Part shown: in pieces, positions 8,462 to 53,671 of the stretch
How the letters are laid out: each line of letters begins with the position of its first letter
Position numbering within the stretch: the stretch's first letter is position 1
NCBI GenBank assembly: GCA_964187785.1
Contig: OZ076409.1
Coordinates: 18,912,001-18,976,000 of the forward strand
DNA length: 64,000 nt
DNA from: Amphiscolops sp. MND2022
Lineage: Eukaryota
Reading direction: 5' to 3'
Translations under genes and position numbers: made by a program
The notes under the pieces: generated by a model
What the model was told of the DNA's origin: nothing
What the model saw: only the letters and a program-made list of their open reading frames with translations
The model's database searches: none

Positions 8462-9360
8462 CTATTAAGCAAAGTTTATCTTCATTCATTTGGCTATTAC
8501 AAGTCAATTACGAACCTAATTTTGTTTTAATGCAGAACTTGCGAGTAGTCAAGAATATGCATCTGTTACGTCACGGTTTTGTCGCCTGAACACATTTGGA
8601 GAACATTACTTTTACGTTCTGACATTTCAGTGGACTTGAATTTTTGGCGAAATAACCCAAAGTTTTCAAAGACTGCCAAAGGTAGTTAGTTCCCTGGTAG
8701 TTTTGTCATAGTGGAAACTGCCTCGGCCGACAAGTAACGAAAAGTTTTCAATTCTTTTACCGTCACATGATTCTGGTGGAATAAGATCTAATATCATTGC
8801 AATTTGTTGAAATGAAAATTTAATTCACTATCACAGTGAATGATTCGATTTCAGATCGTATTCCAGTGGTTTTGGATCTTATTCGAATAATTTTGCAAAC
8901 TATTGCTGAATTTTTAGATCTTGATGCAGTTATTTTGTCGGTTCTCTGAATGGTTGGGAAATCGTATGCGACTTACAAACTTTGTCTCATCTTGTGTTTC
9001 AAGCTAGTTGTTTATTCTTGGAGCTTTGTCATGACTTTTATTTTTAAACAAACTAGTGATAATAAAAAACGTCCCAACAAATTTCATTAGATTGACTTTG
9101 TCCTTCTACTTTCAGTATTACAATTTTTAAAACCAGTGTTTCTTATATTTATTATTGAAACCAAGTCTTTAAAAAATCTGTCATGTTCTTCATCGCTTGT
9201 TCTTGAATTAGGTTTTTCAAGGTATATTCAAATCATTGATTAATCATTTTTCCATATTTTGAGATATCATGATTTAAGCAGATGAGTTTAAAGTTTTCCA
9301 GTTTGTGGTTATGTTCACAGAATGTTTTTTATGTAAACGGTTAGGAAACGCATAATGTTC

Positions 9361-10133
9361 TGTAACGGCAAGCTCTGGTACAGCAATATCAACCGATTTT
9401 GCAACTTTGACATGTTCAGAAATTTTGTCAAAAATTCTAATCCGATGTGTGACGTGGCACTGAGCATGTGATTGCTCTTTTCGCTGTTTCCACGAAATTG
9501 GCAGGTACTTCGACAACAAAGAGCAAGAACGAGCAAAAACACAGGCGCGCCGCCATGAAAGAAGCCAGAGACGGCAAGAACATCCGAAAATAGACTCTAT
9601 TTGAGGTGCTAACACAGGTTTTATCGATTTTCAGCATTATGCTACCCTATGTAGCGGAAACCGTAAAAATGAGTCTTTTCGCCTAAAGATCCTTGTTTGG
9701 TGCTTGGAGCCCCTGCGCCCCAGCTTTTTAGCTGTGTGGTTTGCCATATTCGTGCCTGTTTTCATGTGTTTTCAGTGATTTTGGCTGTATTCAGTAGCGC
9801 TAGCGCTAGTTTAGATCTTTTTCCCCAGTTTTAGATCTTATTCACATGTCACCCTGGAACTGGAAATTTACCTTATTCTTGGCATTGTTTTTATATGCTA
9901 GTTAAGCGGTGGTCTTTAGAGAGTCAGAAAGATGCCCGTTACTATTAGCAATCAAAGACTAGGACCGGTTGGACAGTATTCGTCGAAGCACCCGCGGCCC
10001 CGGGACGTATTTCACCCCTGGAGGCAAAATGGATCTGTGGCGATGGGCGCCTGTCCCGAGCGATTATCCCATTCCTGCAGGTTCCTCCACCTCTGTTAAC
10101 GTGTTAAGCGACCGATAACAGCTTGCCGTTACA
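9361..10133 (+). repeat. 5' LTR (773 bp)
   Basis: Direct repeat of 24795-25567. Perfect 14-bp terminal inverted repeat tgtaacggcaagct...agcttgccgttaca. Confidence 0.97.
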
Positions 10134-10148
10134 TGAGACCTCATTTTT

Positions 10149-10166
10149 TGGCGACCACAGAGGGAT
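10149..10166 (+). promoter_or_regulatory. Primer binding site, tRNA-Arg(UCG)-like (TGGCGACCACAGAGGGAT)
   Basis: Near-complement of the metazoan tRNA-Arg(UCG) 3' end ...TCCCTTCGTGGTCGCCA (recalled, not searched). Confidence 0.75.
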
Positions 10167-11879
10167 CGCTTCCGATTACTGCCCTATTATATGGTTTTGA
10201 AATTTCCGACCCCCTGGTATTGGACGCCAAGAACGATTGGACTCTGGAAGGGGACGTTTACCCAGAGTTTTTCCAAACTGTTTAGATGATATGACGTTAT
10301 ATTTTGGTATTTTTCCTGTATTTCGGGGGATTTTTCCGAGTACCTTTGGTATGTTTTGATAACAGGTATTTGTTGACAGGTATCGTCTAAAATTGTAAGG
10401 TTCCCATCAGCGGGTCCTCTTTTCAGAAGCGTAGTGGACAGTAGCACGTCGCTACTGGTGTTTAACAGGTTTTTCTAGCTGTTTTCAGTGATTTGCGCTT
10501 ATGTACGAGAGGTGAAGTTGATGGTTGAACCATATTCCATCCTGATATGATAGATGACGCTGATAGATGAGCTGAAACGAGTGTTCCCGACTCTCCTTTC
10601 CCATTTCTCGTGGAGACGTGCTAGAGGGATGGTTTTTGGTGAAAGGTAGAACAAGTGCTGACGTTGCCGACGGTCCAAACTGTTTCTCTCTAGCTGGTCT
10701 GGGTGTTGAGAAAAAAGACGACGAAAGTACCACCCCTCATTCCAGAAGTATCAGTTTTTCGGAGTATGGTATGAAAAAATTATTAGATTGTGTACTTTTA
10801 TGACGGGGAATCATTTGTGCATGCTAGTTTTACCCTGTTGCAACTAAGTGTGTGCTTTTGCACCTGTTTTCACTGAAAAAAGTGTGATTTTTAGTGCAAA
10901 AGTCGCAAAAACGTGATTTTTGGCATTTTTGAGTACTTTTATTGGTACGAGCGCGAGCGCTCGAAGTATTAGCCACAGTAGTTGCAAAAACAAATAGAAA
11001 GCAGCCCAAAGCCTTGAGGGTCATGCTACATGATGTAACGACAACCAGAAAGGCCGTTGGAGACCTTTTTGAGACACATTTTGCATGAAAAAACCCGGTT
11101 TTTGGCGAAATTGGCAAAAAACCACTACGAAATGCCACTGGGAGAGTGCTGGATTGTGATGTAATTGCCTCTTCCGTGCTGCTATTAGTTTGGGGCACAC
11201 TTCACAGTACCGAAAATAGGATTTAAGAGAGTTTGTAACGTTTTCTTGGTGAGAACAGGTCGAAAAACCTTGATTTTTGGCCAGTTTCAGGAGTGCCAGA
11301 GTGCATCATTAAAACCTCTGGGGCACTCAGTGTTTTCGAGGCTTGGGAGCCCGCGCGCTCTCATTTTCTGTTTTTATAGTAAAAATAACGCATTGTGGTG
11401 AAAACCGCGTGCAAAAACTCCCATTCAGTGCTGAGAAAAGTGGAGAAACGCACTGAATTTGATCAATTTTCCACACAACCGGACTGTCTCTGAGCTAGGG
11501 TCGGGTCATCGATTCCTGAACCCTAGCCAAAAAGTGGTTGCATTTTCGTAACCACCACAAAAATTAACGTTAGTGCCGAAAATTTGGTGGGCGTATCGGT
11601 CACCAAAGTCGAGAAAAGCTCTCTGACGTTTCGACTTCAGAGAAGCGTCAGAGAATCGAAAGAATCCAAAACTGCAGGACAGTCAGTGCCTTATACCCAA
11701 CGGGCACGACCAATTGAGGGTTTATCCCAGTGCTACAGATAGTGGGACACCACGTTGGTCCCATTTTGCCCGCCGTATCACTTTCTGAGGTGATCCTCTT
11801 GGTCAATTTGTGAAAAAAGTTGTCGAAAACAGTGTTTTTTCGTGTACAACGTACATAGTAGGTCGAAACCTCAAATAAG

Positions 11880-14050
11880 CGCTCGCGCTTCAATTCGACC
11901 ATTTCAGTGGCATTGTAGGTGCCCACTAGCATAGGCTACTAAGTTTGGTGCCAATCTGTGTGATACTTGTCGAGAAAATAGAAAAAACGTGGAGCCCAAA
12001 AAGGCGCGCAAAAAGGCAGTTTTTCTTAATTTTTCCGAGTAACCCGGGCACCTTAGCCGACGGGTGGTGCTATATTGCAGCCCACCATCGTAACTTGTGC
12101 TAGTTCCTACGTTGCTGCAGAGAATTTGAGCTTGCTAGCTCTTGCCAGTGGACCGCAATCTTGAAAAAGACGTTAGAAACAGTGCATTTCGGTACATAGT
12201 GATACCGCACGTCTGTACCTAGGTGAAACTGTGTAGAAGGGGCGCAGCTCAAAACTGTGTTCATTTTCGTAAACCTACGTGTACCTAAAATCTGCTGGTC
12301 AATTATGGGCTGGATACGGCGATTCCAGTGCACACACGAGCCTCTGGAGAGTTGTTGTGCGATTTTTGGAAAATCCAAAAATTCTGTGAAATTCTTCCTA
12401 TGGGTGACTGGAGACTTCTTGCCCCAAACCAGGTTAATTTTCTGGCCCAGCGTGCTTGTGGGAAAGCGCTGTGCAAATTTGAACATCCTACGAGCCTTAG
12501 AACGTGTTTTGAGAAGTCTTGGACGTTGAAAAAACATCAATTTTCTTAAGTCCTCACCGAGACGAGCAGAGGGCCAAATCCTTGAGAAGACCCCCTGCAA
12601 GCCTACCACCGTCTATTTCACTACTCTAACAGCGTGGTTGGTGCCTACTGACGGCGTCTGCCAGGTGTGGTGTCAATTGCTACTATATCTGTTGAGAAAT
12701 TGACTAAAACAAACTGCACAAGAAGGTGCGCAAGAAGGCGAATTCTACGAAGTCTTGTGGGATTGCCTGAACACCTTATTCAAAGAGTGGGGCCAAATTG
12801 CTGCCCACTATCGTAACCAGTGCAACTTTATCGTATTGTTGCCGAAAAAACGAGCTTGAGAGCTCTTTGCAGTTTGCCGGAATCTGAGTTGACACGTGAA
12901 GAACAGTACATATTGGAACACAGTGATATCGAACGTCTGTACTGTGTTGAAATTTCACCTAGTCACCTCAGCACAAATCAACTATTACTCCCTTGTACCT
13001 CAATTTACGTGGGACTGTGTGGTTGATTTTGAAGCCAATCCTGCGTTTCTAGCGTTAGCGCTAGCCTCTGGAGTTTTTTTCAAGTGAAGCTGAAAAACCC
13101 AAAAAACATCTGAAAAACCTCTGACCTGTGACTGGATCCTAATACCCCAATTCTGGACTCACTTTTTGAGTCAGTGCATCAATCCGGAAGTGCTGTATAC
13201 CTTCCAGCGCACTCCGACCCTTGGAACTTATTTCGACGCTTCTCGGACGTGCATATTCATTGTGTCAGTTGAAGGTTTCACCGAGACGAAAACTGGGAAA
13301 GTGAGAAAAGTCATTTCTACGTGTTGGAAACCTGTGGAAACCCCTAGTTTCTTCTCCCAGTAGTTCGTTCATTGCTGTGCGTGCACTATTTGATCAGTAT
13401 CGAGTGGGCTGCCTTGCTGGATCATAGCATTTTGTTACTTGAAGTTGTGATATCCTGTGTATTGTAACGAATTGGATCATTTTTTCGGAATTGTCGGCGC
13501 ACCTTATTGGGAAGTTGGGATTACATTGCCCTGGACTATTCTTATTAGTGTCATTTGGTGCACTGTTGCTGAAAAAGTGAGCTCGAGAGCTCAGCACTGT
13601 GGACGAGAGTCTTTGATTGCAGGTAAAAAAAAGTGTCAATCGAGACACGGTGATACGGAACCTCAGTATCAGATCTAAATCTTGCCCAGTGGTCTGAATT
13701 CTCATTGGTTGTTACTGTAGTGTAGCTGGCTGTACGTGTGATCGCGTGACCAATTTTGAGCCCGATACCACGTTTCCAGCACTTGTAGAAGCCATCTGAG
13801 TGATTTTCTAAAAAAGTTGAAAAATCCAAAAATCGTTGAAAAAGGCTCTAGCTTGGAGCTGGAGGCAATTATCAGCTACGGAAGGTTATTTTTCTGACTT
13901 GTGTGGCTGACAAATTGTGCTGTGTCATTTTGTACCCAGTACGATTGATAAAACTGAATTTGACTCTGTTCAGACACACGTCTTGAACAAAATTCAAAAA
14001 ACACCAGAAAATCTATCATTGTAAACCTTCAATACTTCCGCTGTATAGGA
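11880..14050 (+). repeat. Three diverged ~720-bp tandem units in the retrotransposon leader (boundaries approximate)
   Basis: Homologous anchors at about 12051/12774/13502 and 12361/13083/13810; paralogous antisense peptides TDVRYHYV, TDVRYHCV and TEVPYHRV. Confidence 0.75.
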
Positions 14051-14675
14051 GGCAGACCCAAAAAGCCTTCACTTTCCAACGGAAGGGGCCCAGTAGACCT
14101 TCCTGGGTGCAAAAGAGGCAAATCCCACGGTTCAAAAAAATTGCCGGCGGGGTTCATAAATTTTGGACTCCTCTGGAACTTTGAAATTCAATCCTGAACA
14201 GTTCAAGGCAGCAGTTTTAAGTGCCTGCGACGCACTCTGGACTACATTTTTACATTTTTCAAAAACAAAAATCTCTAGGAGTTACCTTGAGCAGGGTTTT
14301 CGATATCCAAAAGAGACCCTGAGTGTTCCGACTTAGCCAAAATCACAAGATTTTGGGAGGAGCAACTTCCTAGTGACGAAAAATTTGACCGGGTTGCCCG
14401 AGTGTGACACCTTTTTGAACACTCTGGTGCCTCATTTTGGTGTTATTTCGCTGTATCGAGTAGCATCAACGCCGAATATTACGCCAAATTTGCAGAGAAC
14501 TCTTTTGGGCAATTGCAAAATACCCAAATCTCTTGAGGTTGAAAGGTCGACAAACCGCTCGACTGTGTGTTTGGTGCGCACTATCCAACTTGGCTGCAGC
14601 AATCTGCTCTAGAGCAAAATTTTCTAAACCACTGAGCAGTCTGCAGAGTGTTGAGCAGTTTTCAGCACGCTGTGA

Positions 14676-15350
14676 TTGCTGGAAATTCTCTTGACTTTGA
14701 CCCTGACACTGAACTTGGGTACACAGGTTGTTCTAGTGATGCAGTTCGGAACATCTAAAGCTAAAATTAAACATGGGAGATTCTCCCGCCGCCCCCGTTG
14801 CTTTTTTCAAGGGGGAAGGAATGTCAGTGCAGCACAACCAATGGATGTTCATGATGCTCAACCTCAAAATGAATCCCAAATGGTAGATGAACATGACCGA
14901 TCGACGAAGTCAGAGGATTTGAACTTGAAAGATTGGCCTTTGGAGGATAGTTTCAAACCTGTCTCCAATTTTCTAGACACAATGCCATCTAACTCTCAGG
15001 ATACCGAGCCGGAGAGGAGCATAAGGACTCCCAGTCCTATTTCAGTATGGTCGTCTAAAAGATCTTCTCTCCATGAAGCCAGTATTCAGTTTTATCAGAA
15101 ACAGGACCAAAAATTAGAGGCCCTGGAGCAGCAGATGGATGAGATGTCAATCTTTTTTGCACAAGGCACACTTCGCAGGGAGAAACTGCTAGCGCAAATG
15201 CAGTCGATAAATGCAGAAGTACAGGCACACCTCACAAATGTTAAATATCAATGTTTCGAACGACGTCAAATCAGAACCATTGACACCGCCAACAAAAGAC
15301 ATGGGGGTGGACCCAATATCTTTGGACACTACAACCATGGGTATTGCTGA
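14676..15350 (+). CDS. Retrotransposon ORF upstream of and overlapping gag (probable frameshifted gag N-terminus with a coiled-coil segment)
   Basis: 224-aa ORF that shares a paralogous peptide (FFQGGRNVSAAQPMD vs LLKGGEGTSAAQPID) with the gag ORF. True start uncertain. Confidence 0.5.
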   Translation: MLEILLTLTLTLNLGTQVVLVMQFGTSKAKIKHGRFSRRPRCFFQGGRNVSAAQPMDVHDAQPQNESQMVDEHDRSTKSEDLNLKDWPLEDSFKPVSNFLDTMPSNSQDTEPERSIRTPSPISVWSSKRSSLHEASIQFYQKQDQKLEALEQQMDEMSIFFAQGTLRREKLLAQMQSINAEVQAHLTNVKYQCFERRQIRTIDTANKRHGGGPNIFGHYNHGYC

Positions 15351-17670
15351 CACTTTGCCTGAATATCACGCCGATGATAGTGGGTTGCGCGAGCGCAACC
15401 TCTACTCAAGTGATACGAAGAATGAACGAATATCTATCTCATCCTCCATTTCCTTATCGCAGGATTCTTTAAGCAACTCTCACTTCCCTGGAACAAAGTC
15501 CCTAATATCAACTACGAAGTTGCTACCGAGTTTGCTGAAAGACTCCTCTGAGCCACATTCTGCTACATCTAACGCTGGAATGAAACCTTCGGAAAAATTC
15601 CAACGCCACCGCTTCCTTTTGAAGGGGGGAGAGGGCACCAGCGCAGCACAACCAATCGATGAACCGGCCTCGATATCTTCGAACAACGCAACCATGGGCA
15701 TGGCTCACACGTCGCCAGAGGATCACACTGTTCGAGGCAGGTTGCTCGAGAGCAATCATGGTACTGATGACCCAAAAGATGAATTGATATCTCCAGAAAA
15801 ATTGAAATTCACGGAGGCGATATTCAAAGCCATGGCTAAAGAGTTGGCTCCCTTGATTGCCAATCGTGATCAAACCGCTGTGCGACCAACCTTATACAGA
15901 GGTTCGAAAGACGGGACTGTTGAAGAGTGGTTGCTCGTGATGAAACGGTATTTGGAGCGAGTTTATTCCAATGCTTCACCTGTCGACAAGGCCTGGGCGA
16001 TAATCGATCACTTAGGTGATGAAGCTCGGAGTTTTATAATCAACAAACCGGAGTCCGAACGGGATTCTCACGAGAATGTGACTACCTTGCTCTCCAGCAG
16101 ATTTGGGACTGGGAAAAGCCGCTGGCCAGTGAGGCAGGCTTTCAGGTTGCGGAATCAGCTTGAGAAAGAGGGCCTGATGCAGTATCTAGATGCATTAGAG
16201 GGTCTGAGGAGTCAGGGTATTCCTGATGAGCCTATCACAACCCGACGCTATGAAATCTTGCATCGGTTCATGGATGGGGTCAGCGATCCCGTGTTGCAAC
16301 GAGAACTGACGGTAGTGTTTGCGACTGAGGCGTATCTAGCCGACCCACCTACCGTGGAGTCACTTCGGTTCACAGTACAGGAACTCCAAAGGAGTCGTCA
16401 CCAACAACAGCCTCGTGACCCAGGGTGCCCCGAGACTGTACCCTGTGAGTACCTACAGAGCGACCAAGTGCCGGGGTCACCAGTAGCCCAGCAGTATGAA
16501 TCGCTGCCACCCCTTGCACGCCGGTCGGCGCGATTGCCGATGCCGGCTGCGTCAGTACACACAACCCCTGAATACAGACAGACCGCAACCTTAGAGCAAT
16601 CCGCGCGCTGCTTGCAGAGTGCTTGCGCGAGACGCAAGCTGGTGGTGCATCGCCCGGAGCATATTCTTGACCCACATGGTGAGTCCCAGCAAGGTGCTGC
16701 AGCAGCAGTTCCTGCGCCTGCTGTCCCAGTGAAATCGTGCACAACTGAGGTGTCTGCAGGTTGTCCAACATTATCAATCCAGTCAGAAACTTCCAGCCCT
16801 AGGGCTGAAGAAAAGAAGAAAACGGATGCAACGCAAACCCTATCTACTGCCTCTGGCAGGGTATTAATGCTACGTCCAGCTGACCAAGCCACCGTAAATG
16901 CTCCATTGACAGTCACCTGTGGCACAAAGCAGGTGCAGACAGGTTTGGAGTCCACAACGTTCGACCCTAGTGGCCGGACTTTATTGTCTGTACACCTAGT
17001 GCTGGCCTCGGAGCAACAAATACGCCCAGATTTGACCTTGGAAAAATTGAAGCTCGAGTTAGCTAGCAATTCGGCTGTCAAAAAGATCTCCTTACCACTG
17101 CCAAAAGAATTGTATACTGAAGGCGAAGCTAGTACGTGCACGGCATACACCCCAGTTCCTGTGCATGCCAACATAGATGGCGTGGACATGAAATTTGATG
17201 CTAGCGTGGTAGTAGATGTGTTCCCTCAAGGAGTGTGTCTAGGGCCACATGAATTACGCTGCTATAGCATCAGCAAGCAGGAGCCCACAGGTGAGGCCCG
17301 CATAGATGAGCGTGCGTCGCTCGTTGTATCTTTTGCAGTGCCAGATGCCAACCCTATTCCACTGAGAGGAATGGTCGACACGGGGTCAGACGTATCAATC
17401 ATGAGTTTCTCAGCCTTCAACCGTGTAGCCTTGCGGACAGGTGTAGCGCTACAACCTTATCGAATCGACTTGTATGCTGCTAATGGGAAGACGATGAAAA
17501 CGTTTGGAATAGCGGAGCGTGTGCGCTTCCAACTTGGTGGATATGAACTCGAAACAAATTTCGTGGTCGTTGATGACGCACATGGCTTGGAAGATTTCTT
17601 GCTGGGTAGGAATTTTCTGCGAGCATATAACGTGCTCGTAGATCTGACCGCCATGAAAATAGTGTTGTGA
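15211..17670 (+). CDS. gag: Gag (capsid-like) plus aspartic protease
   Basis: Capsid-like segment (YRGSKDGTVEEWL...HLGDEAR...FRLRNQ...RFMDGV). Protease DTGS at 17377 with a downstream FLLGRNFL motif. Confidence 0.9.
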   Translation: MQKYRHTSQMLNINVSNDVKSEPLTPPTKDMGVDPISLDTTTMGIADTLPEYHADDSGLRERNLYSSDTKNERISISSSISLSQDSLSNSHFPGTKSLISTTKLLPSLLKDSSEPHSATSNAGMKPSEKFQRHRFLLKGGEGTSAAQPIDEPASISSNNATMGMAHTSPEDHTVRGRLLESNHGTDDPKDELISPEKLKFTEAIFKAMAKELAPLIANRDQTAVRPTLYRGSKDGTVEEWLLVMKRYLERVYSNASPVDKAWAIIDHLGDEARSFIINKPESERDSHENVTTLLSSRFGTGKSRWPVRQAFRLRNQLEKEGLMQYLDALEGLRSQGIPDEPITTRRYEILHRFMDGVSDPVLQRELTVVFATEAYLADPPTVESLRFTVQELQRSRHQQQPRDPGCPETVPCEYLQSDQVPGSPVAQQYESLPPLARRSARLPMPAASVHTTPEYRQTATLEQSARCLQSACARRKLVVHRPEHILDPHGESQQGAAAAVPAPAVPVKSCTTEVSAGCPTLSIQSETSSPRAEEKKKTDATQTLSTASGRVLMLRPADQATVNAPLTVTCGTKQVQTGLESTTFDPSGRTLLSVHLVLASEQQIRPDLTLEKLKLELASNSAVKKISLPLPKELYTEGEASTCTAYTPVPVHANIDGVDMKFDASVVVDVFPQGVCLGPHELRCYSISKQEPTGEARIDERASLVVSFAVPDANPIPLRGMVDTGSDVSIMSFSAFNRVALRTGVALQPYRIDLYAANGKTMKTFGIAERVRFQLGGYELETNFVVVDDAHGLEDFLLGRNFLRAYNVLVDLTAMKIVL

Positions 17671-20600
17671 GCCCCGGCTAAGCCCGTGTGGCATCACGCA
17701 CACGCCCAGACGAGCGATGAAACTTTATCCAGTACAGTAGTCTTGGATCAAGACGTAGTGCTACAGCCATTCGAGCGTGCTGTTCTACGTGCCAAGGTGA
17801 TCACTTCGAACTTGGAAGCTTTTGCTTTCAGTAATGTTGTGATTAACTTTGCAACACCGAACCGATTGCTGAAGAACACTATATTCGTGGAAGACACTAT
17901 AGCCACTGTTGGAGAGACAGGTTCGTTCTATGTCTCTGTTGGCAATCTGACAAGCAATGCCCAGAAAGTGAAGTGCGGCACCATGCTTGGTACTGCTGCG
18001 CCAGTACGCCTAGTCTACCATGCAGTTCCCCAATGTGCGCTAGCGCACAAAGGCGAGAGTGACGAAAAATCGGACTCCCCAAACGAGTTCGTCAACAGGG
18101 TCTATTCTGAAATGGACCTGAACTCGCATTCAAAATGTTCGTCGTCGTCGGAGTTCGAGTTTCTCTCCTCTACAGACCCATCGGAGGAGGGGTTGTCAGA
18201 ACGCGAGATCAGAAAGCGCACTGACCCTGATCTCTTGGCCCCTATTCCTGGACCCGAATCTCAGTTAGAGGAGGTACAGAAGTTGTGGGGACAGACTGCC
18301 CGCGACTCGCTGAACAACATCCTAACGGAATTTGATGACCTATTCATGAAGCACAAAGCAGACATTGGTCGCTGCACAATAGCCAAGCATCCTGTTGAGT
18401 TGGAGCCTGGGGCTGTACCGCATCGTGAAGGTGCTCGTAGGATGTCCCCTGAAAAGGCTGAGCGTGCCAATCAAGAAGTACGCAATCTCCTGGCTTTGGG
18501 CATGATCCAACCTTCGCTGTCACCTTGAGCGAGTGGAATCGTGATGGTAAAAAAGAAAAATGGGGAGTTGCGGTTCTGCTGCGACTTTCGCCCCCTCAAC
18601 GCTGTCACAATAAAGGACGCGTATCCCCTCCCACGCATCGATGAAAACCTTTCACGATTGGGTAAGGCCAAGATTTACACCAGTATTGATTTGGCATGGG
18701 CTTTCTGGCAGATACCAGTGCGCAAAGCAGATAGGCAGAAAACGGCCTTTGCCTGCGAGCTGGGTTTGTTTGAATGGAGGCGTATGCCCTTTGGGATGTG
18801 TAACGCTTCAGCTACTTTCCAGCGAGCCATAGCGCGAGCGCTACGGAAAATTGTGAACCGGGAAGGAGGCATGGTGATGGCGTACATTGACGACATCGTC
18901 ATTGCTACCGAGACAGTCGAGGACCACATGGTACGCTTACGCGAGGTATTTGAATGTCTGCGCGAAGCTGGCTTCAAAATGAGAGTCGCTAAGTGCGACT
19001 TTATGAAGTCGGAAATCAAGTACCTGGGACGTGTGGTCTCTGCCGAAGGCATCAAACCTGATCCTAAAGCAGTAGCAAAACTACGCGATTGGGAAGTACC
19101 GAGGAACAAAACAGAGATGCAAAGCTTTTTGGGCTTCGCCAACTATTATCGAGAGTTTATTCCTTGGCACGCCAAGCTTGTGGCCCCCTTGCATGTTATT
19201 ACCGGCCTGGGCGCGACTTTCGCCTGGGGGATGAGCAGCAACAGGCTTTCAACGCCGTCAAATTGGCTTTGATCGAGGCAACTGCCTTGGCGCAACCGGA
19301 CTCGGAGGGCGAATTTGTGCTGGACACTGATGCCAGTGCTGTTGCAATTTCCGGCATTTTGCAAAAGTGGCAGGGTCCTCCGGGCGAAAAGCGCCTGAGA
19401 CCAATTGTGTATGGTAGCAAGAAGTTGAATGCCACTCAAGCGAAGTATGGCGCTCCCAAGCTTGAAATGTACGCAGCTTATTATTTCATCTTGAAGAATC
19501 ACAGTTATCTCTGCTCCAGAAAGTTCATCCTTCGGGTTGATAATCAAGCTCTCTCTTGGCTCAAAACGTATTCCACTGATCAGGCCTTGATTGGACGATG
19601 GATTATGGCACTCGAGAAGTACCATTTCAAAGTTGAGCATCGTCCCAGGACACAGCACAGGAATGCCGATGGCCTCAGTAAACGAACCAATGATTATCGG
19701 TGGCGAGAGAAGCAGCTCGAGAAGCTGCCAGCTGTAACGGACAAATGGAATTTCCTCTCACAGGAGGAGTTTGACCAGCTGCCCGTTGCACCTTGGTTCG
19801 ATTTGCATGGTCGGGTGATACCCAATCACCCCCAATTGCCCGCTCACTTGCGGAACACTAAACCAGAGCCCACAAATGCAGTTTGTCGTGTTGCACGACG
19901 GCGTAAGCGCCGTCAGGCCGCTGCGAAAAGGGAGAGGGCGCTACGCGCTCCTCTACCTGAGGTACTAGTGCCTACATTGCAAACTCACGAAGACTTCTAT
20001 CCAGATTATCATGAGGACTGGATTGACGTCACTGAAGAGGCTAGGCAAGATTACTTGCTGCCTACACATGTGGCAAATATCCCCTCACGCATGACATATG
20101 CCCTTGACGAAACAGTGGAGCAAGCCATGGCTTCCGTTCCAACGGTGGTTAGGCAAGCTGCCCTAGCCATCAAGGACTTAGACACGGAACTTCATGAACA
20201 TGCCAACACGGTGCATGGCATCAAGGATCTGCTTTTGGCGCAGAATCGTGATGTGCATGTTCTAGCCATAAAGAAGTTGGTAGCACAAGAGTCTATTGAT
20301 CATGACATTTTTCCTGACGACGTGCGTGCGTTCGCACGTAACTATTACAAGCAGAAAAAAGATCTTCTGTTTGTAAACAAAAATGGAATTCTTTGTGTTA
20401 AGTATCCACCTCAGCAACGTCCATTGCACGAACGTCCGTGCATGATTGTAATGCCACAATTGTACCAGCATGAAATTTTGTTTCGTGCTCATGATGCCAT
20501 GGGCCACCACGGCATTGCAAAGGTGGTGTCGCGAATCCAAGAACGCCATACCTGGCCAGGTATTCGCCGCAGCGTTGGTCAGTACGTGAGTCAGTGCCTC

Positions 20601-23600
20601 ACGTGCCAGAAAGTACGTGACAGGCCGGGTGACGTTCGGTTTCACTTGAAAAATATCCAAAGTGGGTACTTCAATGAGCTAGTCCAGTATGACCATCTGA
20701 AAATATGCCCCTCCGATAACAATAACACCGGCATATTGGTGATAATTGACCATTTCTCCAAGTTTGCGGAGGCTGTACCCTGCAGCCATGAGGATTACGA
20801 TGCAGTGACCACGTCTAGGTTGCTTTTGCAGAAATGGTTTGCCAGACACGGCACGCCTACGCGGATGCAATCAGACAATTCCCCCAACTTGACCGCAGAG
20901 GTATCCAATGAGTTCATGAGGGCATCTCAGGTCACAAAAGTTACCTCTACGGCGGGTCATCCGCGCACCCAAGGCCTGGTTGAACGACAAAATCGGACTT
21001 TGCTGACTTTGTTGCGTGTATTTTGCTCGCGTCGCATGAGAGATTGGGACCAGCATTTGGATGAAGTCATGGGAGCGTATAACTCAACGCGCCATGCCAC
21101 GACTGGGTTTTCACCCTACATGCTGACCCGAGGGACCGAAAAGGCTATTCCTCTCACCTATCTGTATCCGGAGTTCGCAGCCAGATCATTTGAATCGCAT
21201 GGAGCTTATGTGGAGCATATTCTTGCTCGCCAGCAAGAGATTCATGACTTGGTGCGTAGAAACACGCATCAGGCGCAACAACGTCAAAAGCTAAAATATG
21301 ATCGAGCTATTCGTGCAAACGCATACAATGTGGGAGACCCCGTTTGGGTATTCTGCCGCTATGTACCTCAAAAAGGATCACCGAAGTTGATGAGAGCTTG
21401 GCGTGGTCCGCACAAGGTTGTCCATGTACTACAAGATGGCCGCGTGTATATCCTGGACTCAGGACAAAAAGTGCACTTTGAGCGCCTGAAACCTCATCAT
21501 GGTGGCCCTACGGAGTTTGTTGCGCTTCCCTCGGGGAGTGGCGAAGTGGTCATTGTCATGGATCCTGAGCCTGAGCACTCTGCTGAGGAGATCCGAGATG
21601 ACTGCTCACAACCCTCATATCGCGAGGAAGAACCGCTCTCTGAAGCATCAGATGTATCGCTACCATCAAGAAGACGCCACTGGATGGACACCAGGTTGCG
21701 TACTAGAATGCGAGCTGGAGGCAGTCGTCTCCACTATCAGCAATTTGACTATTCCAGTTCCGACCCAGAGCGTTCGCGCTCTGACGACTTGCTGTTAGAT
21801 GCCCGAGATCATTCCCAGGAAGAACCTCCGGCGCTATTCGAAGCCTCAATGCCTCCCGATGAACAACCTCGGTCATTTGAACCTGCCGATGAGCTTCCAT
21901 TTTTATCCGAATCTGAAGTTTTTCCGGAAGTACCTCAATCGCAAGATATTCCCGTTGCAACTGGAGAAGCCGAAGTATCACTAGCGGGTACATCTGCTCC
22001 TCTGTTGACAAATCCTACATTGACGGATGTGCCAATTAGTATTCCCCAATTGCCGAATGGTACCTCCAACCTCCAAAACACTGAAACCCGTGACACCGAG
22101 TTATCCAACACCAACGAGCCAACTGCTCGGAACAATGTCCCTAGCACGCGTGGCAGGGGCAGATCGCGAGCTGCTTTACCTCGTTGTTCGACACGAGCAA
22201 CAAATTCCCGGTCGCAGAACGTGAGCGTGCGCGCTCAAAGGACTCCCAGTCGCAGAGGACGTCCTCGAGGACGACCTCCTCGGAGGCCACGAGGACGCAC
22301 TATTTCTTCACGGCAAACAGCTCGTGAAATTGACACACAGCCTTCAATTACATCGGATTCTGACTCTGATGCGCCCACCGCGCAGCTTACATCCGATGTT
22401 GACCAAGGCGCAACGCAGGTTAACCCACACTATGGCTCACGCCGGAATCGAGTACCTCGATATCGATGTGGAACCTGTGGGTTCCGCGATTGCACTTGTG
22501 TCATGGCTCTGAACAAATCGCCCACTATCCCACTTGGACCTGTGAAAACTCCGCTGGATCCAAAACCTCAATCTTTTATCCACAATGGTAAGCTTCTTGT
22601 CAGTCGCGTTGTCATCCGCGCAGAGAAGACATACACCGGACTAGAAAGAGAACGTATCTTCCCAGTAGACGTCGTGCTGGAAGAATTATCTAAATCCAAG
22701 ATTGCTGAGGAACCTTGTCCTCGCTTCAAGGAGTTGACAAGCGATCTCCGCGGATTGGAATTCACGCTTGCTGTCACAGTGCCTCCTGTCACTCCTAACA
22801 TTGTATTCGGACCTTTCAATTATGAGAGGGAACCCATCCAAATGGTCCGCTGTATCACCGCTGACCTCCTATCTGACAAATACGGCATCACCTGTCAGCC
22901 TGGTCAAGTGTATCGCCCAGCCCAATATTGGTGGTTGCTTGTAACTGCCCCACATGCTCACTCTTTGGTCCAGCCTGACAGCTTGCGGAGCTGTCTAGAG
23001 AGTTTGCGGACTGTTGTCACTGAGGAACTCATTTTGTGCTTCCACATCGTTGATCTTTATCGTGGAAAACTACGGTTCCGATGGTGGCTAGAGCTGATTA
23101 TCACTTTGTTCGCCAGCTTCCCTCGTATCCGCCTTTTGGACGATTGGACCCATTCCTTCACCGAGCCTGTAACGATCCACACTGCACTTGGTACCCTGGA
23201 TTCATGGTCAACAGCAAATGTGGATAATCAGTCTCTGTCGTGGTCCGTATGGCAGGATCTATCTGCTATTCGTGGACAGAACCATAAAGACCCAGCTGAT
23301 GAAAAAGGTCCCGGACGTTAGATTGTGTTTCCTGGTGCCCTACGACGAAATTTGGTCGATTACATTGTTTACGACCAAACTGATTTCTTGCAGGTGCAGG
23401 GCCACGTAGCAATTTGCTGCCCTGCAGACCTTAATACTAATTCTGCTGCCTTACGCTACATTCTTCGCGAGTGTGGCAGCGACAAAGTATTCCAACTTCG
23501 CCCAACAGTTGGTGAAGTCCTAACTCTCCCATCTTCATTGTCTTTAATGGATAGTCAGGTTATTCACCTAATGATAACACGCCCCTCCCAGCGTTCACCA

Positions 23601-23834
23601 CAAGTCACCGATGACTTTTTCCTATGCTTGGAGCACTTGAAGGCTTCATTATTGTCCAACAAAACCCCTGATATTTATTTCCCCATAGTGGACCCTGAGC
23701 GCCCACTTCGTAGCTTGGACAATTTTTATCATAGTGTCATGGACGTTTTTGCAGGAACTGATATCACTGTATTTCTGCATGATCGCGTCTATGTGTCCAT
23801 TGCCAGTATTGAACAATTTCCTGGCATCACTTAG
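17671..23834 (+). pseudogene. pol: Pol (RT, RNase H, integrase, long C-terminal extension), disrupted
   Basis: RT motifs LRFCCDFR, MPFG and YIDD (18883); RNase H TDAS...DGLS; integrase H-H-CC and D,D,E. Same frame as gag with TGA at 17668 and 18526, a 1-nt deletion near 19226-19230, and TAG at 23319 after which the frame stays open to 23834. Confidence 0.93.
23325..23834 (+). CDS. TARG1/OARD1-like macrodomain ORF (in-frame continuation of pol after a single TAG)
   Basis: Colinear similarity by eye to TARG1: IVYDQTDFL/ITYVKGDLF, GEVLTL/GEVAVL, LMITR/YLITK, LEHLK/LEAMK, DVFAGTDITV/EVFEATDIKI. Confidence 0.7.
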   Translation: MFPGALRRNLVDYIVYDQTDFLQVQGHVAICCPADLNTNSAALRYILRECGSDKVFQLRPTVGEVLTLPSSLSLMDSQVIHLMITRPSQRSPQVTDDFFLCLEHLKASLLSNKTPDIYFPIVDPERPLRSLDNFYHSVMDVFAGTDITVFLHDRVYVSIASIEQFPGIT

Positions 23835-24778: not shown

Positions 24779-24794
24779 AAAGCCCGGGGAGTGA
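24779..24794 (+). promoter_or_regulatory. Polypurine tract (weak; aaagcccggggagtga) abutting the 3' LTR
   Basis: Purine-rich run immediately before the TG of the 3' LTR. Confidence 0.6.
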
Positions 24795-25567
24795 TGTAAC
24801 GGCAAGCTCTGGTACAGCAATATCAACCGATTTTGCAACTTTGACATGTTCAGAAATGTTGTCAAAAATTCTAATCCGATGTGTGACGTGGCACTGAGCA
24901 TGTGATTGCTCTTTTCGCTGTTTCCACGAAATTGGCAGGTACTTCGACAACAAAGAGCAAGAACGAGCAAAAACACAGGCGCGCCGCCATGAAAGAAGCC
25001 AGAGACGGCAAGAACATCCGAAAATAGACTCTATTTGAGGTGCTAACACAGGTTTTATCGATTTTCAGCATTATGCTACCCTATGTAGCGGAAACCGTAA
25101 AAATGAGTCTTTTCGCCTAAAGATCCTTGTTTGGTGCTTGGAGCCCCTGCGCCCCAGCTTTTTAGCTGTGTGGTTTGCCATATTCGTGCCTGTTTTCATG
25201 TGTTTTCAGTGATTTTGGCTGTATTCAGTAGCGCTAGCGCTAGTTTAGATCTTTTTCCCCAGTTTTAGATCTTATTCACATGTCACCCTGGAACTGGAAA
25301 TTTACCTTATTCTTGGCATTGTTTTTATATGCTAGTTAAGCGGTGGTCTTTGGAGAGTCAGAAAGATGCCCGTTACTATTAGCAATCAAAGACTAGGACC
25401 GGTTGGACAGTATTCGTCGAAGCACCCGCGGCCCCGGGACGTATTTCACCCCTGGAGGCAAAATGGATCTGTGGCGATGGGCGCCTGTCCCGAGCGATTA
25501 TCCCATTCCTGCAGGTTCCTCCACCTCTGTTAACGTGTTAAGCGACCGATAACAGCTTGCCGTTACA
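24795..25567 (+). repeat. 3' LTR (773 bp)
   Basis: Matches the 5' LTR except for two substitutions seen by eye (aaattttg/aaatgttg; ctttagag/ctttggag). Confidence 0.97.
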
Positions 25568-25936
25568 TTCTTTTTGATAAAAACATCATCTGTCTGTAAC
25601 TAAACATTCATCAAGTATCAAATTGAGAAATATCAAATTGAGAAAATGCACTGTCGCAGTTGACGCAGTGTTTCAAGAATGTCAGACACGAATTCCAGGT
25701 TTAACCTGCCTATCTAAACTGAATTCTGCCTTTAATTTCAACTATTTTGTTCCAGTGTGTCTCTCGCCATTCTGACAACTTTGTTGTACTCTTGGACCGG
25801 AACTTTTAACTTTCCGCCCACTAGCAGAAAAAGATATGTACAAAATTTGGAAAGTTTGCATAAATTATTCGATGTTTGTATGCTTGGAGGATGTTTTAGA
25901 AAGTATTTAGCGAGTCGAAATGTGTTATGGACTGAC

Positions 25937-40364: not shown

Positions 40365-40546
40365 AGCTTCTCGACTTTACCGAAAAAAAATATGTTCAAA
40401 AATTAAAATACATGAAACAAAATCTGGCAACAGCTTTCACATTATCTGAGGGTAATTACCCTCAGATAATGTGAAAGCTGTTGCCAGATTTTGTTTCATG
40501 TATTTTAATTTTTGAACATATTTTTTTTCGGTAAAGTCGAGAAGCT
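40365..40546. repeat. Perfect 182-bp palindrome (91-bp arms, no spacer)
   Basis: Centre ...gagggtaa|ttaccctc... at 40455/40456; arms pair without mismatch. Confidence 0.95.
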
Positions 40547-47875: not shown

Positions 47876-50800
47876 TGTTGTATTCCTCATCAACTTCTAA
47901 AGGAAGGAATTCAGTGTTCAAAATAACTGTTTCCTATCGAATCTTTTCGTAGCACTAGGCTGTTGTTCTTCTGAGCTTATGTGACAGGGACAGGTATTTA
48001 AATAACACTAACAAAAATTACAGTACAAATAAGATGAAAGCATAGACATAGAATAATTAGTTTATACAGTCTGAGTTCGCACGTCCTCAACATTCCTCCT
48101 TCTACTATTGGCGGATGATCTGCCAATGGGGACGTGCTGCTTTCTTTGTGGCGGTCGTTCCTCCACTGGTCCGAGGTTTGGGGACGGGTAACTGTTCCTC
48201 GCTTCTTTGGTTGACGGGACTGGAGCGGTACCTGATTAGTTTGGGTCTGCTTCGGCCGAATGTACTATTTCTGTTGTGTTGTCCAGCCGCTCTTGAGTTC
48301 TCGGGTCTTCTAGGTAAATTGGTGGTGTTTCTGGCTCGCCGTCTGATTCTATCACCGTTGTCCGCTTTCGTTTGGATAGTGATTTTGTAAATCGGCCAAC
48401 CGGTCCACATGGTCCAATCTCTCTGTTGCTGTGTTCCTGGTTAAAATCAGCGGTGGGTTTACTGATGTGTTTTTATGTAATACTCTCCTGTTAGGAGTGG
48501 TTACTGTATGGTCTGTGCCCGATATTGCTGTTTGCGGTTTGTCGGATTTTGCACTTTCAAATTTTTGTCGTTTATGTTTTTTCTAGAAATAAAAAGAGTT
48601 TTTACTAACTCCTTTTGTTTGTCTTTGGCTCCATATGTAGCTGGTCAGACACACCGCCGGCTCCACTTAACGAATATACTTGTAATGTATCTGGCTTGGC
48701 AATGTATAGGAATTTTTTGTTGACCTTTCTAAGGTATCGAGATTTAACAAGATGCTTACTTCGGTGTTAGGTGTTCGGCCGTAATGGGCTTCTAAAGCAA
48801 ATTTTCTCAGTCTCGTATGTGGTGTTTTTCTCATTACGTCCAGAGACTTGTCTAAAGCATTGTCAAACTGTTCGCCCGCTTTGATGTTCGTTAGGAGGTA
48901 TTTTCAAGTTCTCCCCGTTCTACTAGGACGGAGCGGGTATGTATACACGGTGTCCCGCATAATAGTTTGATGAAGTGTTTTTTACAAAAATCCCTTAAAA
49001 AGCGTCCTGTGAACGCGATGACTTTATCCGTTCTAATCTTTTCAGGTATGACGTTTAGCTGTTCGAGAAATTTCACCGCTGTTTCACCGTCCGTAGATGT
49101 GCAAACACTTTCTGCCGCCATTTGCTAATCCGGTCTGTGGACATAAAAAAGATAAAAATGACGGTTGTTTTCCGAGATTGATCCATTGGAATCCAATTGG
49201 ATTTCTTCGTTTGGACTATTTAGCGGTGGAAGGTTGTTTGTTTCCGTAGTCGGTATATTAGGCTTAATGTTCTCACCGGACCTTTTGCAGGGAAGGCATA
49301 ATTCACACTCCTTCTGTTTTGCCTCGATCATTCGTGGTCATCAGAAATGTCGCGCTGCAAGCGTCATCTCATTGATGGCCGGATGTCCGTTGTGGAGGAG
49401 GCTTAATATCGTCTTTCGGAGGTTTTTCGGGACAATGATTTCATCTTTCAGGAAAACGACACCGAACCGGCTTGACAATCTCTTTTTGTGACAAATTGTG
49501 GTATCAGCACGGGCTGCTGACGTTCTTGACGTACTAGTGTCTTCAGTAAGTTGGGATCGTTAGTAGTCTCCGTCATTAGCAATCGTAAATCCGTTGAAAG
49601 GTTTTTTGGTTTGTTGCACGGCTTCCTTAAAGTCCCAGTTGTTTTCTTCATGTACGGATATTTTCGGCGCGTGTCTCATATCTACATATTGGACGCTCTT
49701 CACTCCTATTTACGTTTGACTGCGTGAACTTCAAGGACTGACAGGTCCTTGTCCCTGTCGGAGTCAATTTCTCCTTCCTCTATCGAAATTGGGGCGTTCT
49801 GGTCTGGGCTGATCGGTGCTGTGGATGGTCGTGGCGGTTGGGCTGATGTCGGCCGTTCCATTTCCGAGAATGGGTCTACGGTCCATTGCTCCGATCAACG
49901 TGTCCGCAGTTGGAAGCCTCCTCTGTGTTGTGGACCGTTTCGTTGTCTCAGGTCGCCTTTGTCATGGCCCTTATTGTTTGTTGGAGCCGTTCTTCAATTA
50001 CTATACTTTCTTTCCGTAGGAATTTTGGATCGCGGTATTTCTTACACTTTCGTCTGGTCATGCGGTAAATGCCGGGTTTACCACTTTCCCTCCATCTGTG
50101 AATTATATCTGTCGTTTCAGCGGAGGAAACTACCGCTTAAATGTATTTCAATCGTTCTGGAGTTCATTGTAACTCTCGTGCTTTTTGTAATACTCGGTTT
50201 GAAATTTGTATGTGTGTTTGTTACGCTGTTAAAACAATGAATGACGGTGTGTTCACGCGCATCCTTTGACCGTGCTTCATTGTTTGTTTTGCCTTCGCTT
50301 TTGTCCGTTCTGCTTCTGATTGGTCAATGTGGTTGCTAAGGCAACCGCGCTTGGAAATGAACGTGTACTGCGGTAAGATGGTATTAATGACAAATTCTTA
50401 ATCGTGCGCTTTGTCCGTTTGCGGCGAGTCTGATGCATTCTACGCAAGTAATCCGTGAGCGCTAGATGTTCACCCGCGACATGGTTCACCTTGATAGTGA
50501 AATGCAATAACCGGTCCAGCCACCTCGTTACTCGTGCACTAAAAGTGTTTTGGAGCAGTTTCGTTTAATCAGTGGTTCCAGTGCCTGGTGATCTGTTAGT
50601 TATTTTATCAGTTACCGTAAATTTACAAACGAGGCCTTTAGCACTAGCGTCGGTTGTTATGACGTTTAGGTAGTTTGAGTCATGATGAGCCAAACTCGGT
50701 ATGTCCGTGATTTTTTGCTTGAGATTTTCAAATGCTAGCGTATGTTCTTCCGCCCATACCAATCAGTATCTTTTTTCAAAAGCTGTCGCAAATCGTCCAT

Positions 50801-53296
50801 GTGTGCGGATAGTTTGTCGATGTATTTTGACAGATATTGGATAGCCATCAGGAACAAAATCAATTCCTTGCCATGATTAGGCCGTTTCAGTTTCTTCATT
50901 TCCATTAGTTTGTTTCGTAATGGCCTGATTCCGTTTAGATCTATTTCATACCCAATCCATTCGTTTTGAAAAAATTCGCATTTGTTTTTGCTAAGTCTGT
51001 GTCTGGCGTTTTCTAGTCTAGTAAGGATATCTATAAGCTCTTTTTTGTGTTGTTATATCCAACCATTTGTTACCACAATTATGTCGTCCAACCATGCGGG
51101 GTGTTTTTATCTAATGTTTTGTCAATTTTCTCCTGAAAAATTGTCGATTTATCCGCTAACCCGTAGAATCCTCTCAAGAAACGGTAGTAACCGGTAAAGT
51201 TCCACCCGGTTACTGGAAGTATGCACAGGTTTCAGGCTTCCCGGAACAATAGTAGTTGTCCATACGCATAATCTAGATCGAATTTTGAGGTCAAAACTTC
51301 GTCTGCTGCTCCATCTATGATTTTTCAGGATTTTCTCGAAAAGAGCTTTTCCATGTTAGGCATTTGTGTCTTCCTTTTTATGGTGAATTTTTTCAAATTT
51401 TGTCAATGCAGTGCAATTTTCACTGATTTGTCTTACTTTACCGTAATTTCGGCCGGACTGATCAAGCAGTTTTCATCGATGTTATTTGCCGTTTCAATGT
51501 GGCCTTGTTTCTATAAAATTTTGATTTTTTTTTCAACCGATTGTTTTATATGTATCGGTATTGGTCTCCCTTGTTGTTGTATCAATTTTGCATCTTATTT
51601 TAGTTTTATTTTCACTTCTAGTCCCTTCATGGTATTGTTTTCGTTGAAAAGTCTTTTGAATTTTCATTTGAGCATTGTTATGTCCGGATTTTCTCTACGT
51701 AGTTTGTTTCTGGATCGGTCTTACCGGCATGAAGCCGTAGTCCCAGATTTTCTATCTTGTCTAAGCCTAGTAAGGTGTTTGTCTTCTTTGTCGTTACCAA
51801 AATCTCCCGGCATTTTTGTTTCCCATCCTTTTCAACTTTCGCCATTGTTTTTCCTTCAAACTATATCAGGTTGTCGTTCACTTCTCTGTATTCGGTTTCT
51901 AGAGGACGTAATGGTGCTATTTTGTTGAATTTTGACTTCAGTATTAAGGTTACCGGTGAGCCGCTTCCTATGATGAATGCGATTGGTCGGTTATTGACCA
52001 ATGCGGTGAAGGTAAAGAATTCCGAACCGTCATTGATTTTTGAGCGTGTTGAATGGATCTTCTGACTTATGGAATGAATTGGGTTTGGTGATCAACCGTC
52101 TTCTTCTGCACTACTTGTTCCTTGTTCCTGTATGCATTTTATTTTTCTATTTGTCCTGCAGCATTTCGCAAAATGTCCAATCCTTCACATTTTGCGCATT
52201 TCTTTCCCCTAGAAGGGCATTCGTGCTGTCTTGACCTGTTTGGGGCTCCACATCTGTTGCAGACTATTTTCTTTAATTTTGCCGGTTTGTCTGTTGATTC
52301 CCTGGTGGTTTTTGTCTTTCTTTTTGTGAGATATCGAATTTTTTTCGCTTCGTCTGTCTCTGGTGAGTCATTTTGTTTTTCATAGATATACTCGTGCAAT
52401 GCTTCGGTTATTTCCTCTAACTACATATCTTTCGGTCTGATCTTTTTCTTTAGATCGTAGTCGCCAGTTGATTTGCCGATTACGGATACAAATTCTGATG
52501 CCAGAAACTTTGCCGAGGTTATTAATTCAAATTCGCACCTTTTCTTTACTTCTAGGATTACTTTCCAAACATCAGCTGCGAATTCTCCGTCTTCTCGTTT
52601 CAGGTCAAAAAAATTGGCTCTGCTACGTTTCTCTCTGGCGTAATGTGCAGTCGGAACAGTGTATATAAATTATACAACGGTAGTGAGTTCGGTTCTCTCT
52701 CCAAAACCATTTTATTCCTCTCCGTGATAACATTTTGTCCAAGGGCCCTCGAAATTTGTCTTTTATTTCCGTTTCTAAATAATCACGGTATTTTGGCAGT
52801 TTTTCTTTATTAGTCGTCATTGTCAACAGGTCCAAGTCCTTCGTCCTTTTTATATACTGTACAAATTTCCGCCATCACATGTTTGCATTGATGCAGTGTT
52901 GCTTTTCCAACATTGGAATGAAAAACTTCTGGGTGCAGGTCCTGTTCATCGTGTCGTTTGGTAGCAGTTGTCCACTTGAGTGTGATTGCGCCGACGTCAT
53001 TGTGGTGCCTCCACTTCTTGGGGTGGTTTCTGTGTTGCTGTCCGTAAAATATTTTTTAATGATCTATTGTAACTTTTTCCGTTACTCTGACTGCGCCATG
53101 TTGTATTTCTCATCAACTTGTAAAAGAAGGAATTCAGTGCTTAAAATTAACTGTTTTCTATCAAATCGTTTTCTTCTGCGCTTATGTGGCAGGGACAGGT
53201 ATTTAAACAACACCAATAATAATACAGTACAAATAGGATGAAAGCATAGACATAGACTAATTAGTTCATACAGTCTGAGTTCGTGTGTCCTCTACA
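47876..53296 (-). mobile_element. Decayed Ty3/Gypsy (Mag-like) LTR retrotransposon, 5.4 kb
   Basis: Diverged LTRs at 47876-48092 and 53099-53296; 5-bp TSD caggg/taggg. PBS TGGCGCAGTC (tRNA-Ser-like) ends at 53098; PPT agaaggaggaa at 48093-48103. Remnants of a zinc knuckle (CNRC..H.C, ~52200-52265), RT AWLDDI (~51080-51097), RNase H TDAS (~50650) and integrase IRTD (~49030). Confidence 0.92.
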
Positions 53297-53299
53297 TAG

Positions 53300-53671
53300 G
53301 GTTACATGACATTTTGTCCTATGTAATTAATTTCAACTGTTGCCATTTCAACCGTTCACGCTTTCAACCTATTGCGTTTTCAATATTCGACAATTTCGAC
53401 GTAAACTAATCTGGGCTCTTTAGTCGGTTGAGTTAATATTTCAGTAAAATATTTAGTAATGGATCAAACAGCCTTAATTAATGGTAATTGTTCATAAACA
53501 AGCTAAAACGTATCAAAATTGGTGTAAAAAGTAACACATTTGAATGTAGAAATGTATGAAAATGAAATAATTGGTTCGAAATTGCGGCAGGTTGAAAGTG
53601 CAATAGGTTGAAATTTTAAGCGATTGAAATGGCAACGGTTGAAATTGCATTGAATGAAATGTCCTGACACC
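53300..53671 (-). mobile_element. MITE copy (9-bp TSD, Mutator-like), interrupted at its terminus by the Mag-like element
   Basis: gaaaaacag occurs at 47865-47873 and 53672-53680, flanking the MITE once the LTR element is removed. Confidence 0.7.

Follow-up and report, generated by a model that had tools for sequence, protein, structure and literature searches.

The stretch of DNA analysed here, referred to below as the window, comprises 64,000 nucleotides of contig OZ076409.1 from Amphiscolops sp. MND2022 and contains a full-length long terminal repeat (LTR) retrotransposon whose pol ends, downstream of the integrase, in two predicted macrodomains, A and B (Table 1). A Pfam search gave the Gypsy order of protease, reverse transcriptase (RT), RNase H and integrase, and the closest solved RT in the PDB is that of Ty3 (E 3e-49). 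TG..CA LTR ends, this domain order, the Ty3-like RT and a GPY/F-type motif in the integrase are all marks of Ty3/Gypsy (Metaviridae) elements. The window copy is damaged, with stops at 17668, 18526 and 23319 and frame changes in gag and near 19230. Its open frame at 19068-23321 closes at a TAG codon (23319-23321), beyond which the same frame stays open to 23834. An initial annotation, made from the sequence alone, had described this part of the element; the coordinates, open frames, TAG and peptides that it quoted were all present, and the tail between the GPY/F-type motif and the TAG does measure approximately 600 residues.

The macrodomains are not visible to simple sequence searches. Pfam Macro matched neither A nor B as a single sequence, nor any of 24 homologues. 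A single-sequence search of the PDB retrieved TARG1 with B at E 1.1 only and found nothing with A, and the ESM Atlas returned one Macro cluster for B, at rank 10 (0.90), and leads only for A. A profile of B homologues (58 of 145 hits, query included, chosen for coverage) matched TARG1/OARD1 over its full length at E 2e-13, with nothing else below E 0.1; the long homologue hits P0061, P0099 and P0114, together with P0113, had been discarded as unrelated repeat proteins. AlphaFold models of B and A, with predicted local distance difference test (pLDDT) scores of 92 and 84, both had TARG1 as their top Foldseek match (E 9e-12 and E 6e-7, respectively). A structure search independent of Foldseek also placed TARG1 first, for B with Z 16.8 and a root-mean-square deviation (rmsd) of 2.9 over 139 aligned residues (DarG, 15.2), and for A with Z 12.2 and rmsd 2.8 over 116 (DarG, 11.3; Poa1p, 10.3). 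The A part of the tandem profile (A2) did not match TARG1 by sequence, so that A is assigned by the fold search and by its profile match to B: HHalign aligned A-only and B-only profiles with a probability of 96.6% (E 6.6e-10), the best of 20 column-shuffled controls reaching 9%. By profile comparison A and B are homologous, and in the models both adopt the TARG1/DarG-class (ALC1-like) macro fold, within bounds slightly refined from those first proposed. The assignment to TARG1-like macrodomains made in the initial annotation therefore stands, with a mixed outcome for the HMMER/HHpred and AlphaFold/Foldseek checks that it suggested: single-sequence Pfam Macro failed, and the B profile and the fold searches with models succeeded. 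An A-B complex prediction, run without alignments and with the partner fold uncertain, scored 0.00.

Table 1. Features of the LTR retrotransposon in the window, with loci of intact TARG1-like domains elsewhere in the genome.
Feature	Position (strand)	Details
Left target-site duplication	9358..9360 (+)	TTC, 3 bp
5' LTR	9361..10133 (+)	773 bp; TG..CA; 14-bp inverted termini; 99.7% identity to 3' LTR
gag and aspartic protease region	14676..17670 (+)	PF13975 match; frame breaks; stop 17668-17670
Reverse transcriptase	18529..19272 (+)	RVT_1 E 2e-36; stop 18526-18528 upstream, frame change near 19230 downstream
RNase H	19227..19622 (+)	Pfam
Integrase	20454..21500 (+)	HHCC zinc finger; DDE core; GPY/F-type motif WRGPH at 21399-21419
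Basic RGRP stretch, presumably AT-hook-like	22251..22298 (+)	Inside low-complexity tail
Cys motif YxCxxCGxxxCxC	22461..22499 (+)	Conserved; probable zinc site
Macrodomain A	approx. 22788..23150 (+)	Predicted TARG1-class fold without loop 1/helix 1; Ala at Lys84 position
A-B linker	23151..23345 (+)	Two helices; contains copy-specific TAG 23319-23321
Macrodomain B	approx. 23346..23786 (+)	Predicted complete TARG1-class fold; Arg at Lys84 position, DPER replacing GCGL
Purine-rich tract	24780..24794 (+)	Just 5' of 3' LTR; common to two sister families
3' LTR	24795..25567 (+)	
Right target-site duplication	25568..25570 (+)	TTC, 3 bp
Intact TARG1-like domains, loci L114-L160	e.g. G000:C12:44821667, C8:61679113, C3:39936724, C1:2914938	

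The element is abundant. A search of the 1.07-Gb genome returned 3,575 candidates for domain B, and the 150 that were scored are all 92-100% identical, 21 of them (hand count) lying within open frames of at least 2,750 residues. The window family is very large, and the tandem-carrying element is among the most successful in this genome. Among 57 distinct copies covering the region, the TAG occurs in the window copy only and the other 56 have a sense codon, for which reason programmed readthrough was rejected. The stretch from A to B is open and ungapped in 41 of the 57. Integrase, A and B share one frame in 18 of 20 ten-kb loci (selected mostly for long frames), eight copies of the window family (family 1) carry a single frame of 3,048-3,064 residues from gag to B, and pol ends in the same way in five or more related families of the genome, with B 42-58% identical. 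Taken together, the one-frame loci, the gag-to-B copies and the related families show that the tandem genuinely extends the C-terminus of a single Gag-Pol protein and requires no readthrough, and they bear out the tandem, integrase-fused arrangement described at the outset. Upstream of A, the RGRP and Cys motifs accompany the tandem in 7/7 open reading frames (ORFs) from this genome and in 4/5 database proteins; they were found in 0/3 single-domain proteins.

Selection on the two domains was estimated at several depths. Between families, synonymous sites are saturated (proportion of synonymous differences, pS, 0.75-0.90), with nonsynonymous differences (pN) of 0.14-0.39 in A and B. For the unsaturated pair L103/L107, the ratio of nonsynonymous to synonymous substitution rates (dN/dS) is 0.089 in A, 0.077 in B, 0.128 in the linker, 0.035 in the integrase and 0.008 in the RT. 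Within family 1, variants present in at least three copies gave 0.09 for A, 0.21 for B and 0.50 for the linker, and singleton variants 0.62, 0.38 and 0.85. Judged from these ratios, both domains are under purifying selection, with dN/dS about 0.08-0.2 in the sister-copy comparison that the initial annotation had put forward as a check; as far as selection can report, the tandem is real, conserved and functional.

A and B share with TARG1/OARD1 (C6orf130) and DarG the fold and the order of its elements, at approximately 16-20% identity; they differ in lacking the catalytic lysine, in having replaced or deleted glycine loops, in being acidic, in standing in tandem and in being fused to a retrotransposon pol. 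We tallied pocket residues over 34 B domains, some of them decayed copies, which remained from 144 after dropping those more than 80% alike, and over 25 A domains (from 126). TARG1 numbering was derived from chain offsets and agrees with G43, I44 and G123 of PMC5928194. At the position of the catalytic Lys84, B has Arg in 33/34 domains and Lys in 1/34. Gly121 is replaced by Asp (31/34), Cys122 by Pro (20/34), Gly123 by Glu (21/34; Gly in 4/34) and Leu124 by Arg (27/34), Asp is found at the Asp125 position in 0/34, and in loop 1 the Gly41 position has Gly in 0/34 and the Gly43 position Ala in 28/34. The adenine-binding Asp20 is kept in 28/34 and Pro118 in 24/34. Domain A has Ala at the Lys84 position in 19/25 and Lys in none, with Asp at Gly121 (22/25), Tyr at Gly123 (20/25) and Arg at Leu124 (22/25), and its stretch for loop 1 and helix 1 is shorter than that of B by approximately 15 residues. 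Of the features of TARG1/DarG hydrolases, A and B thus lack the catalytic lysine, the diphosphate loops (G41/G43 and G121-C-G123) and D125. The replacement of the lysine and of the GCGLD loop in both copies had been noticed from the start; in sequence, the ADP-ribose pocket is rebuilt, beyond catalytic blunting. TARG1 K84A is inactive (PMC8501950), G43E, I44E and G123E each deprive TARG1 of activity and of ADP-ribose binding, and G123E is not recruited to damage sites (PMC5928194). By analogy with these mutants, hydrolysis by A or B is very improbable, and ADP-ribose binding has probably been lost as well.

Rebuilding is not the same as decay. R87 (B numbering), the residue at the catalytic position, is the sole column conserved at 90% or more in alignment A1 and the most conserved of the family, which argues that the pocket is not decaying. 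D124, R127, D36, S41, R49 and E50 are conserved over B domains that are 24-80% identical. The surface has an acidic character: the window B has an isoelectric point (pI) of 5.2 with 12 basic and 18 acidic residues, and the median net charges of the family domains are -2 and -3, unlike most intact domains of the same genome, where pI is above 8.5 in 5/7.

These intact domains came from a Pfam Macro search of the genome, which returned 59 matches. Of the weaker Macro loci, 27 were fetched and 26 parsed, and these keep the lysine in 26/26 and Gly123 in 24/26; one intact locus retains its loops and hits TARG1 at E 1e-27. Intact single TARG1-like domains lie in LTR families whose RT is 24-44% identical to that of the window element, after the integrase in two families, between RNase H and integrase in two and between protease and RT in one, and a further intact domain is found in a frame of 835-845 residues without RT or integrase matches. 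The presence of intact domains at three pol positions in unrelated LTR lineages shows that a macrodomain on Gypsy pol is common in this genome. Gypsy proteins of other invertebrates carry annotated macrodomains as well. The window element stands apart in having its pocket rebuilt and its domains in tandem. The search also gave three strong host-like Macro matches (L111-L113), by eye two MacroD-like and one macroH2A-like, and two loci (L137 and L140) that may be cellular or element-borne TARG1-like exons.

Relatives outside this genome give some indication of the order of events. The database proteins P0129 and P0050, which are fragments with a presumed link to pol, contain the tandem at 27-36% identity to the best copies of this genome; its presence in such divergent proteins suggests that the tandem is spread over several species. 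In a sister clade (database proteins P0308-P0326; RT 51-59% identical), pol terminates in one B-type domain, in which the Arg and a DPNR loop are already present. The change of the pocket would therefore predate the duplication, and degeneration before duplication is the simplest reading of these sequences. The single-domain clade was not found in the Amphiscolops genome, where the best match for P0116 reached 27-30%, and IMG/VR and JGI contigs yielded no relatives. A domain tree, limited to sequences from this analysis and unsettled in its deep branches, where long branches meet, groups the A domains (98/99), nine tandem B domains (97/100) and, on a long branch, six intact domains (100/100).

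The insertions themselves have an unusual signature. Target-site duplications are 3 bp in 35/40 insertions (19/20 in family 1 and 8/10 in each of two other families); 4 bp fits 1/40, in a T run, and 5-6 bp 0/40. The termini of the three tandem-macro families (loci L167-L262 and the window) are TGTAACG..CGTTACA. An unrelated LTR element (L159), our single control, has a 5-bp duplication. The tandem clade thus departs from the 4-6 bp usual for Ty3/Gypsy elements, a length that is typical and not formally defining. Kojima 2025 (PMC12440569) gives 4-6 bp as the duplication length of LTR elements apart from Troyka, and our literature search, which did not extend to the Troyka supplements or most subscription journals, found no non-Troyka LTR clade with 3-bp duplications. 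The tandem clade resembles Troyka in its 3-bp duplications and single Gag-Pol frame (PMC12440569). Troyka elements have CG..CG ends, LTRs of 100-400 bp, no GPF/Y motif and a CX2CX8-10HX4C knuckle (PMC12440569), whereas the tandem clade has TG..CA ends, LTRs of 720-773 bp, a GPH/GPF motif and CX2CX4HX4C knuckles. The 3-bp duplication is of interest in its own right: in print it has been a feature of Troyka, and these families would presumably escape LTR finders that require 4-6 bp. No evidence ties the short duplication to the macrodomains. A preference for A+T targets was considered and dropped, since G/C accounts for 8/57 in the duplications of family 1 but for 8/24 and 7/24 in families 2 and 3.

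How might such a tandem have arisen, and what might it do? The ancestor of this Ty3/Gypsy clade would have acquired a TARG1-type macrodomain as the last part of its pol, and the captured domain would have lost TARG1 chemistry and the diphosphate-binding loops early, a new conserved Arg/Asp set (R87, D124 and R127, B numbering) coming to occupy the former pocket. One sub-lineage would then have duplicated the domain, with later loss of loop 1 and helix 1 from the upstream copy. Produced as the C-terminal end of a single Gag-Pol polyprotein, the A+B pair would most likely sit on the integrase tail as an adaptor that binds protein and, aided by the Cys and AT-hook-like motifs, docks the integration complex on a putative host nuclear or chromatin partner, with no ADP-ribose required. 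This pseudo-macrodomain adaptor, proposed from the position of the pair and from its neighbours only, is the reading we favour, tentatively and with slightly less than an even chance; chromatin tethering by a route other than ADP-ribose is plausible. Several points weigh against it. The protease may cleave the tail from the integrase, and 34 flanks revealed no shared insertion target, with ordinary G+C (0.37) and few shared repeats, the A+T bias of family 1 being absent in families 2 and 3. In addition, B retains Asp20 and occasionally Gly at 123 in the proportions given above, the near-invariant Arg at the catalytic position might equally signal a new ligand, and the residue mapping is an ungapped hidden Markov model (HMM) alignment and not an inspection of coordinates.

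The new ligand is the first alternative to consider. The pocket of B could have been re-tooled for another small ligand or reaction, for example a nucleotide or a modified residue, via R87, D124, E126, R127 and D36. Conservation of pocket residues, R87 foremost, supports this, as a decaying site would vary. However, A, with half the pocket gone, retains the D-x-x-R pair too, which suggests a structural staple, and in the searches with the B model no solved macrodomain ranked above TARG1; on balance we consider a re-tooled pocket unlikely. Only a little less favourable is our view of the reading offered in the initial annotation, in which catalytically dead, binding-competent domains serve as readers or decoys of ADP-ribose or poly(ADP-ribose) (PAR), steering integration to PARylated chromatin or absorbing PARP signals. 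The TARG1 fold, the retention of Asp20 and Pro118, and the possibility that the conserved Arg87 and Arg127 touch phosphates would all suit such a role, and PARP14/15 provide a precedent for catalytically dead tandem macrodomains (PMC10221186). Yet the substitutions reach the binding loops as well as the lysine: Gly121 and Gly123 are mostly replaced in both domains, with Glu at Gly123 in most B domains recalling the G123E mutant that abolishes TARG1 binding, loop 1 lacks Gly41 in B and is deleted in A, and the net charge is negative. We therefore regard a role as PAR reader or decoy as unlikely, and this part of the initial annotation does not hold up.

Two further alternatives leave ADP-ribose aside. 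The pair could be a protein-binding module for counter-defence or particle assembly that acts after release from the integrase and plays no part in target choice. The lack of a detectable target preference and the long low-complexity linker between module and integrase would fit, and these elements bear other accessory genes; against this, the tandem is accompanied by the AT-hook-like and Cys motifs, and the pair sits where chromoviruses carry their chromodomain (PMC12440569), and we hold a released module to be improbable. Binding of nucleic acid (element RNA or complementary DNA), as by coronavirus Mac2/Mac3 (PMC7925111, PMC10221186) or the basic surface of TARG1, is more doubtful still given the acidic charge of B and of the family, opposite to that of most intact domains. 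That the tandem is a neutral relic of an old capture is scarcely credible: the window copy is broken in several places and the A singletons are near neutrality, as expected after insertion, but the low dN/dS between families and among shared variants contradicts it.

The adaptor reading has partial counterparts among known systems. The closest mechanistic analogy is the coronavirus SARS-unique domain, whose Mac2/Mac3 are likewise tandem macro folds of a polyprotein without ADP-ribose binding. These differ in being distant structural matches (Z approximately 7.4), in following an active Mac1 and in binding nucleic acid, whereas A and B are TARG1-class and not basic. The chromodomain of chromoviruses is also a host reader fold that a Gypsy pol has captured at its C-terminus (PMC12440569; for MAGGY, 10.1101/2021.11.30.470311), with a different fold and a known mark, whereas the ligand site of the tandem appears closed and no target bias was found. 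Pfam detected no Chromo match in the window element, and both folded domains of its tail are predicted macro folds. A retroelement with a macro domain is known from fish epsilon-like endogenous retroviruses, where macro-domain genes form additional reading frames (Basta et al. 2009, cited in PMC4977317). Together with the intact copies in unrelated LTR families described above, these agree with the earlier remark that macrodomains occur in other retroelements; the fish frames are separate, whereas here two pocket-altered domains follow the Gypsy integrase in frame. Among reader domains known from transposon fusions, Chromo and PHD predominate (10.1101/2021.11.30.470311), and the accessible text of PMC5408684 and PMC9040795 reports no LTR-element macrodomains. 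Within a literature search that left Repbase, GyDB, CDD and most subscription journals outside its reach, a tandem, pocket-altered, post-integrase macro pair was found undescribed.

Tail modules that guide LTR integrases to chromatin are known for few cases, and a conserved pseudo-macrodomain pair invisible to Pfam would add one. The widest formulation would be that, in an undescribed Gypsy-type clade (3-bp duplications, TG..CA), an anti-ADP-ribosylation enzyme was captured and remade as a tandem pseudo-macrodomain, serving as an integration tether or a new-ligand pocket, in a genome where TARG1 domains that look active persist in five or more unrelated LTR families; as a whole we find this doubtful. 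If true, it would imply that host ADP-ribosylation of retroelement DNA or protein is a general anti-transposon defence, and that the pair represents a new class of integrase targeting module. Because active-looking and pocket-altered domains coexist in one genome, comparing the two biochemically would be a simple way to learn whether retrotransposons are restricted by ADP-ribosylation.

Other parts of the element and of the window deserve brief mention. Approximately 4.5 kb between the 5' LTR and gag (10134-14675) has no long plus-strand frame, and its length differs between copies. The gap from pol to the 3' LTR is only approximately 960 bp in the window family; in sister families 2 and 3 pol is followed there by a large additional frame, of more than 1,000 residues where seen and with a 33% identical core (examples are L063, L051, L072, L215:168-3263 and L217:3-3164). 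This ORF matched nothing in Pfam or the PDB and has DS and NxxDH motifs, which we take to resemble those of SGNH/GDSL esterases. Outside the element, the window has a strong A/T skew at 48001-54000, with open frames of 150-218 residues without a Pfam match, many dispersed short repeats, and, at 40365-40546, a perfect 182-bp palindrome of two 91-nt arms with no spacer.

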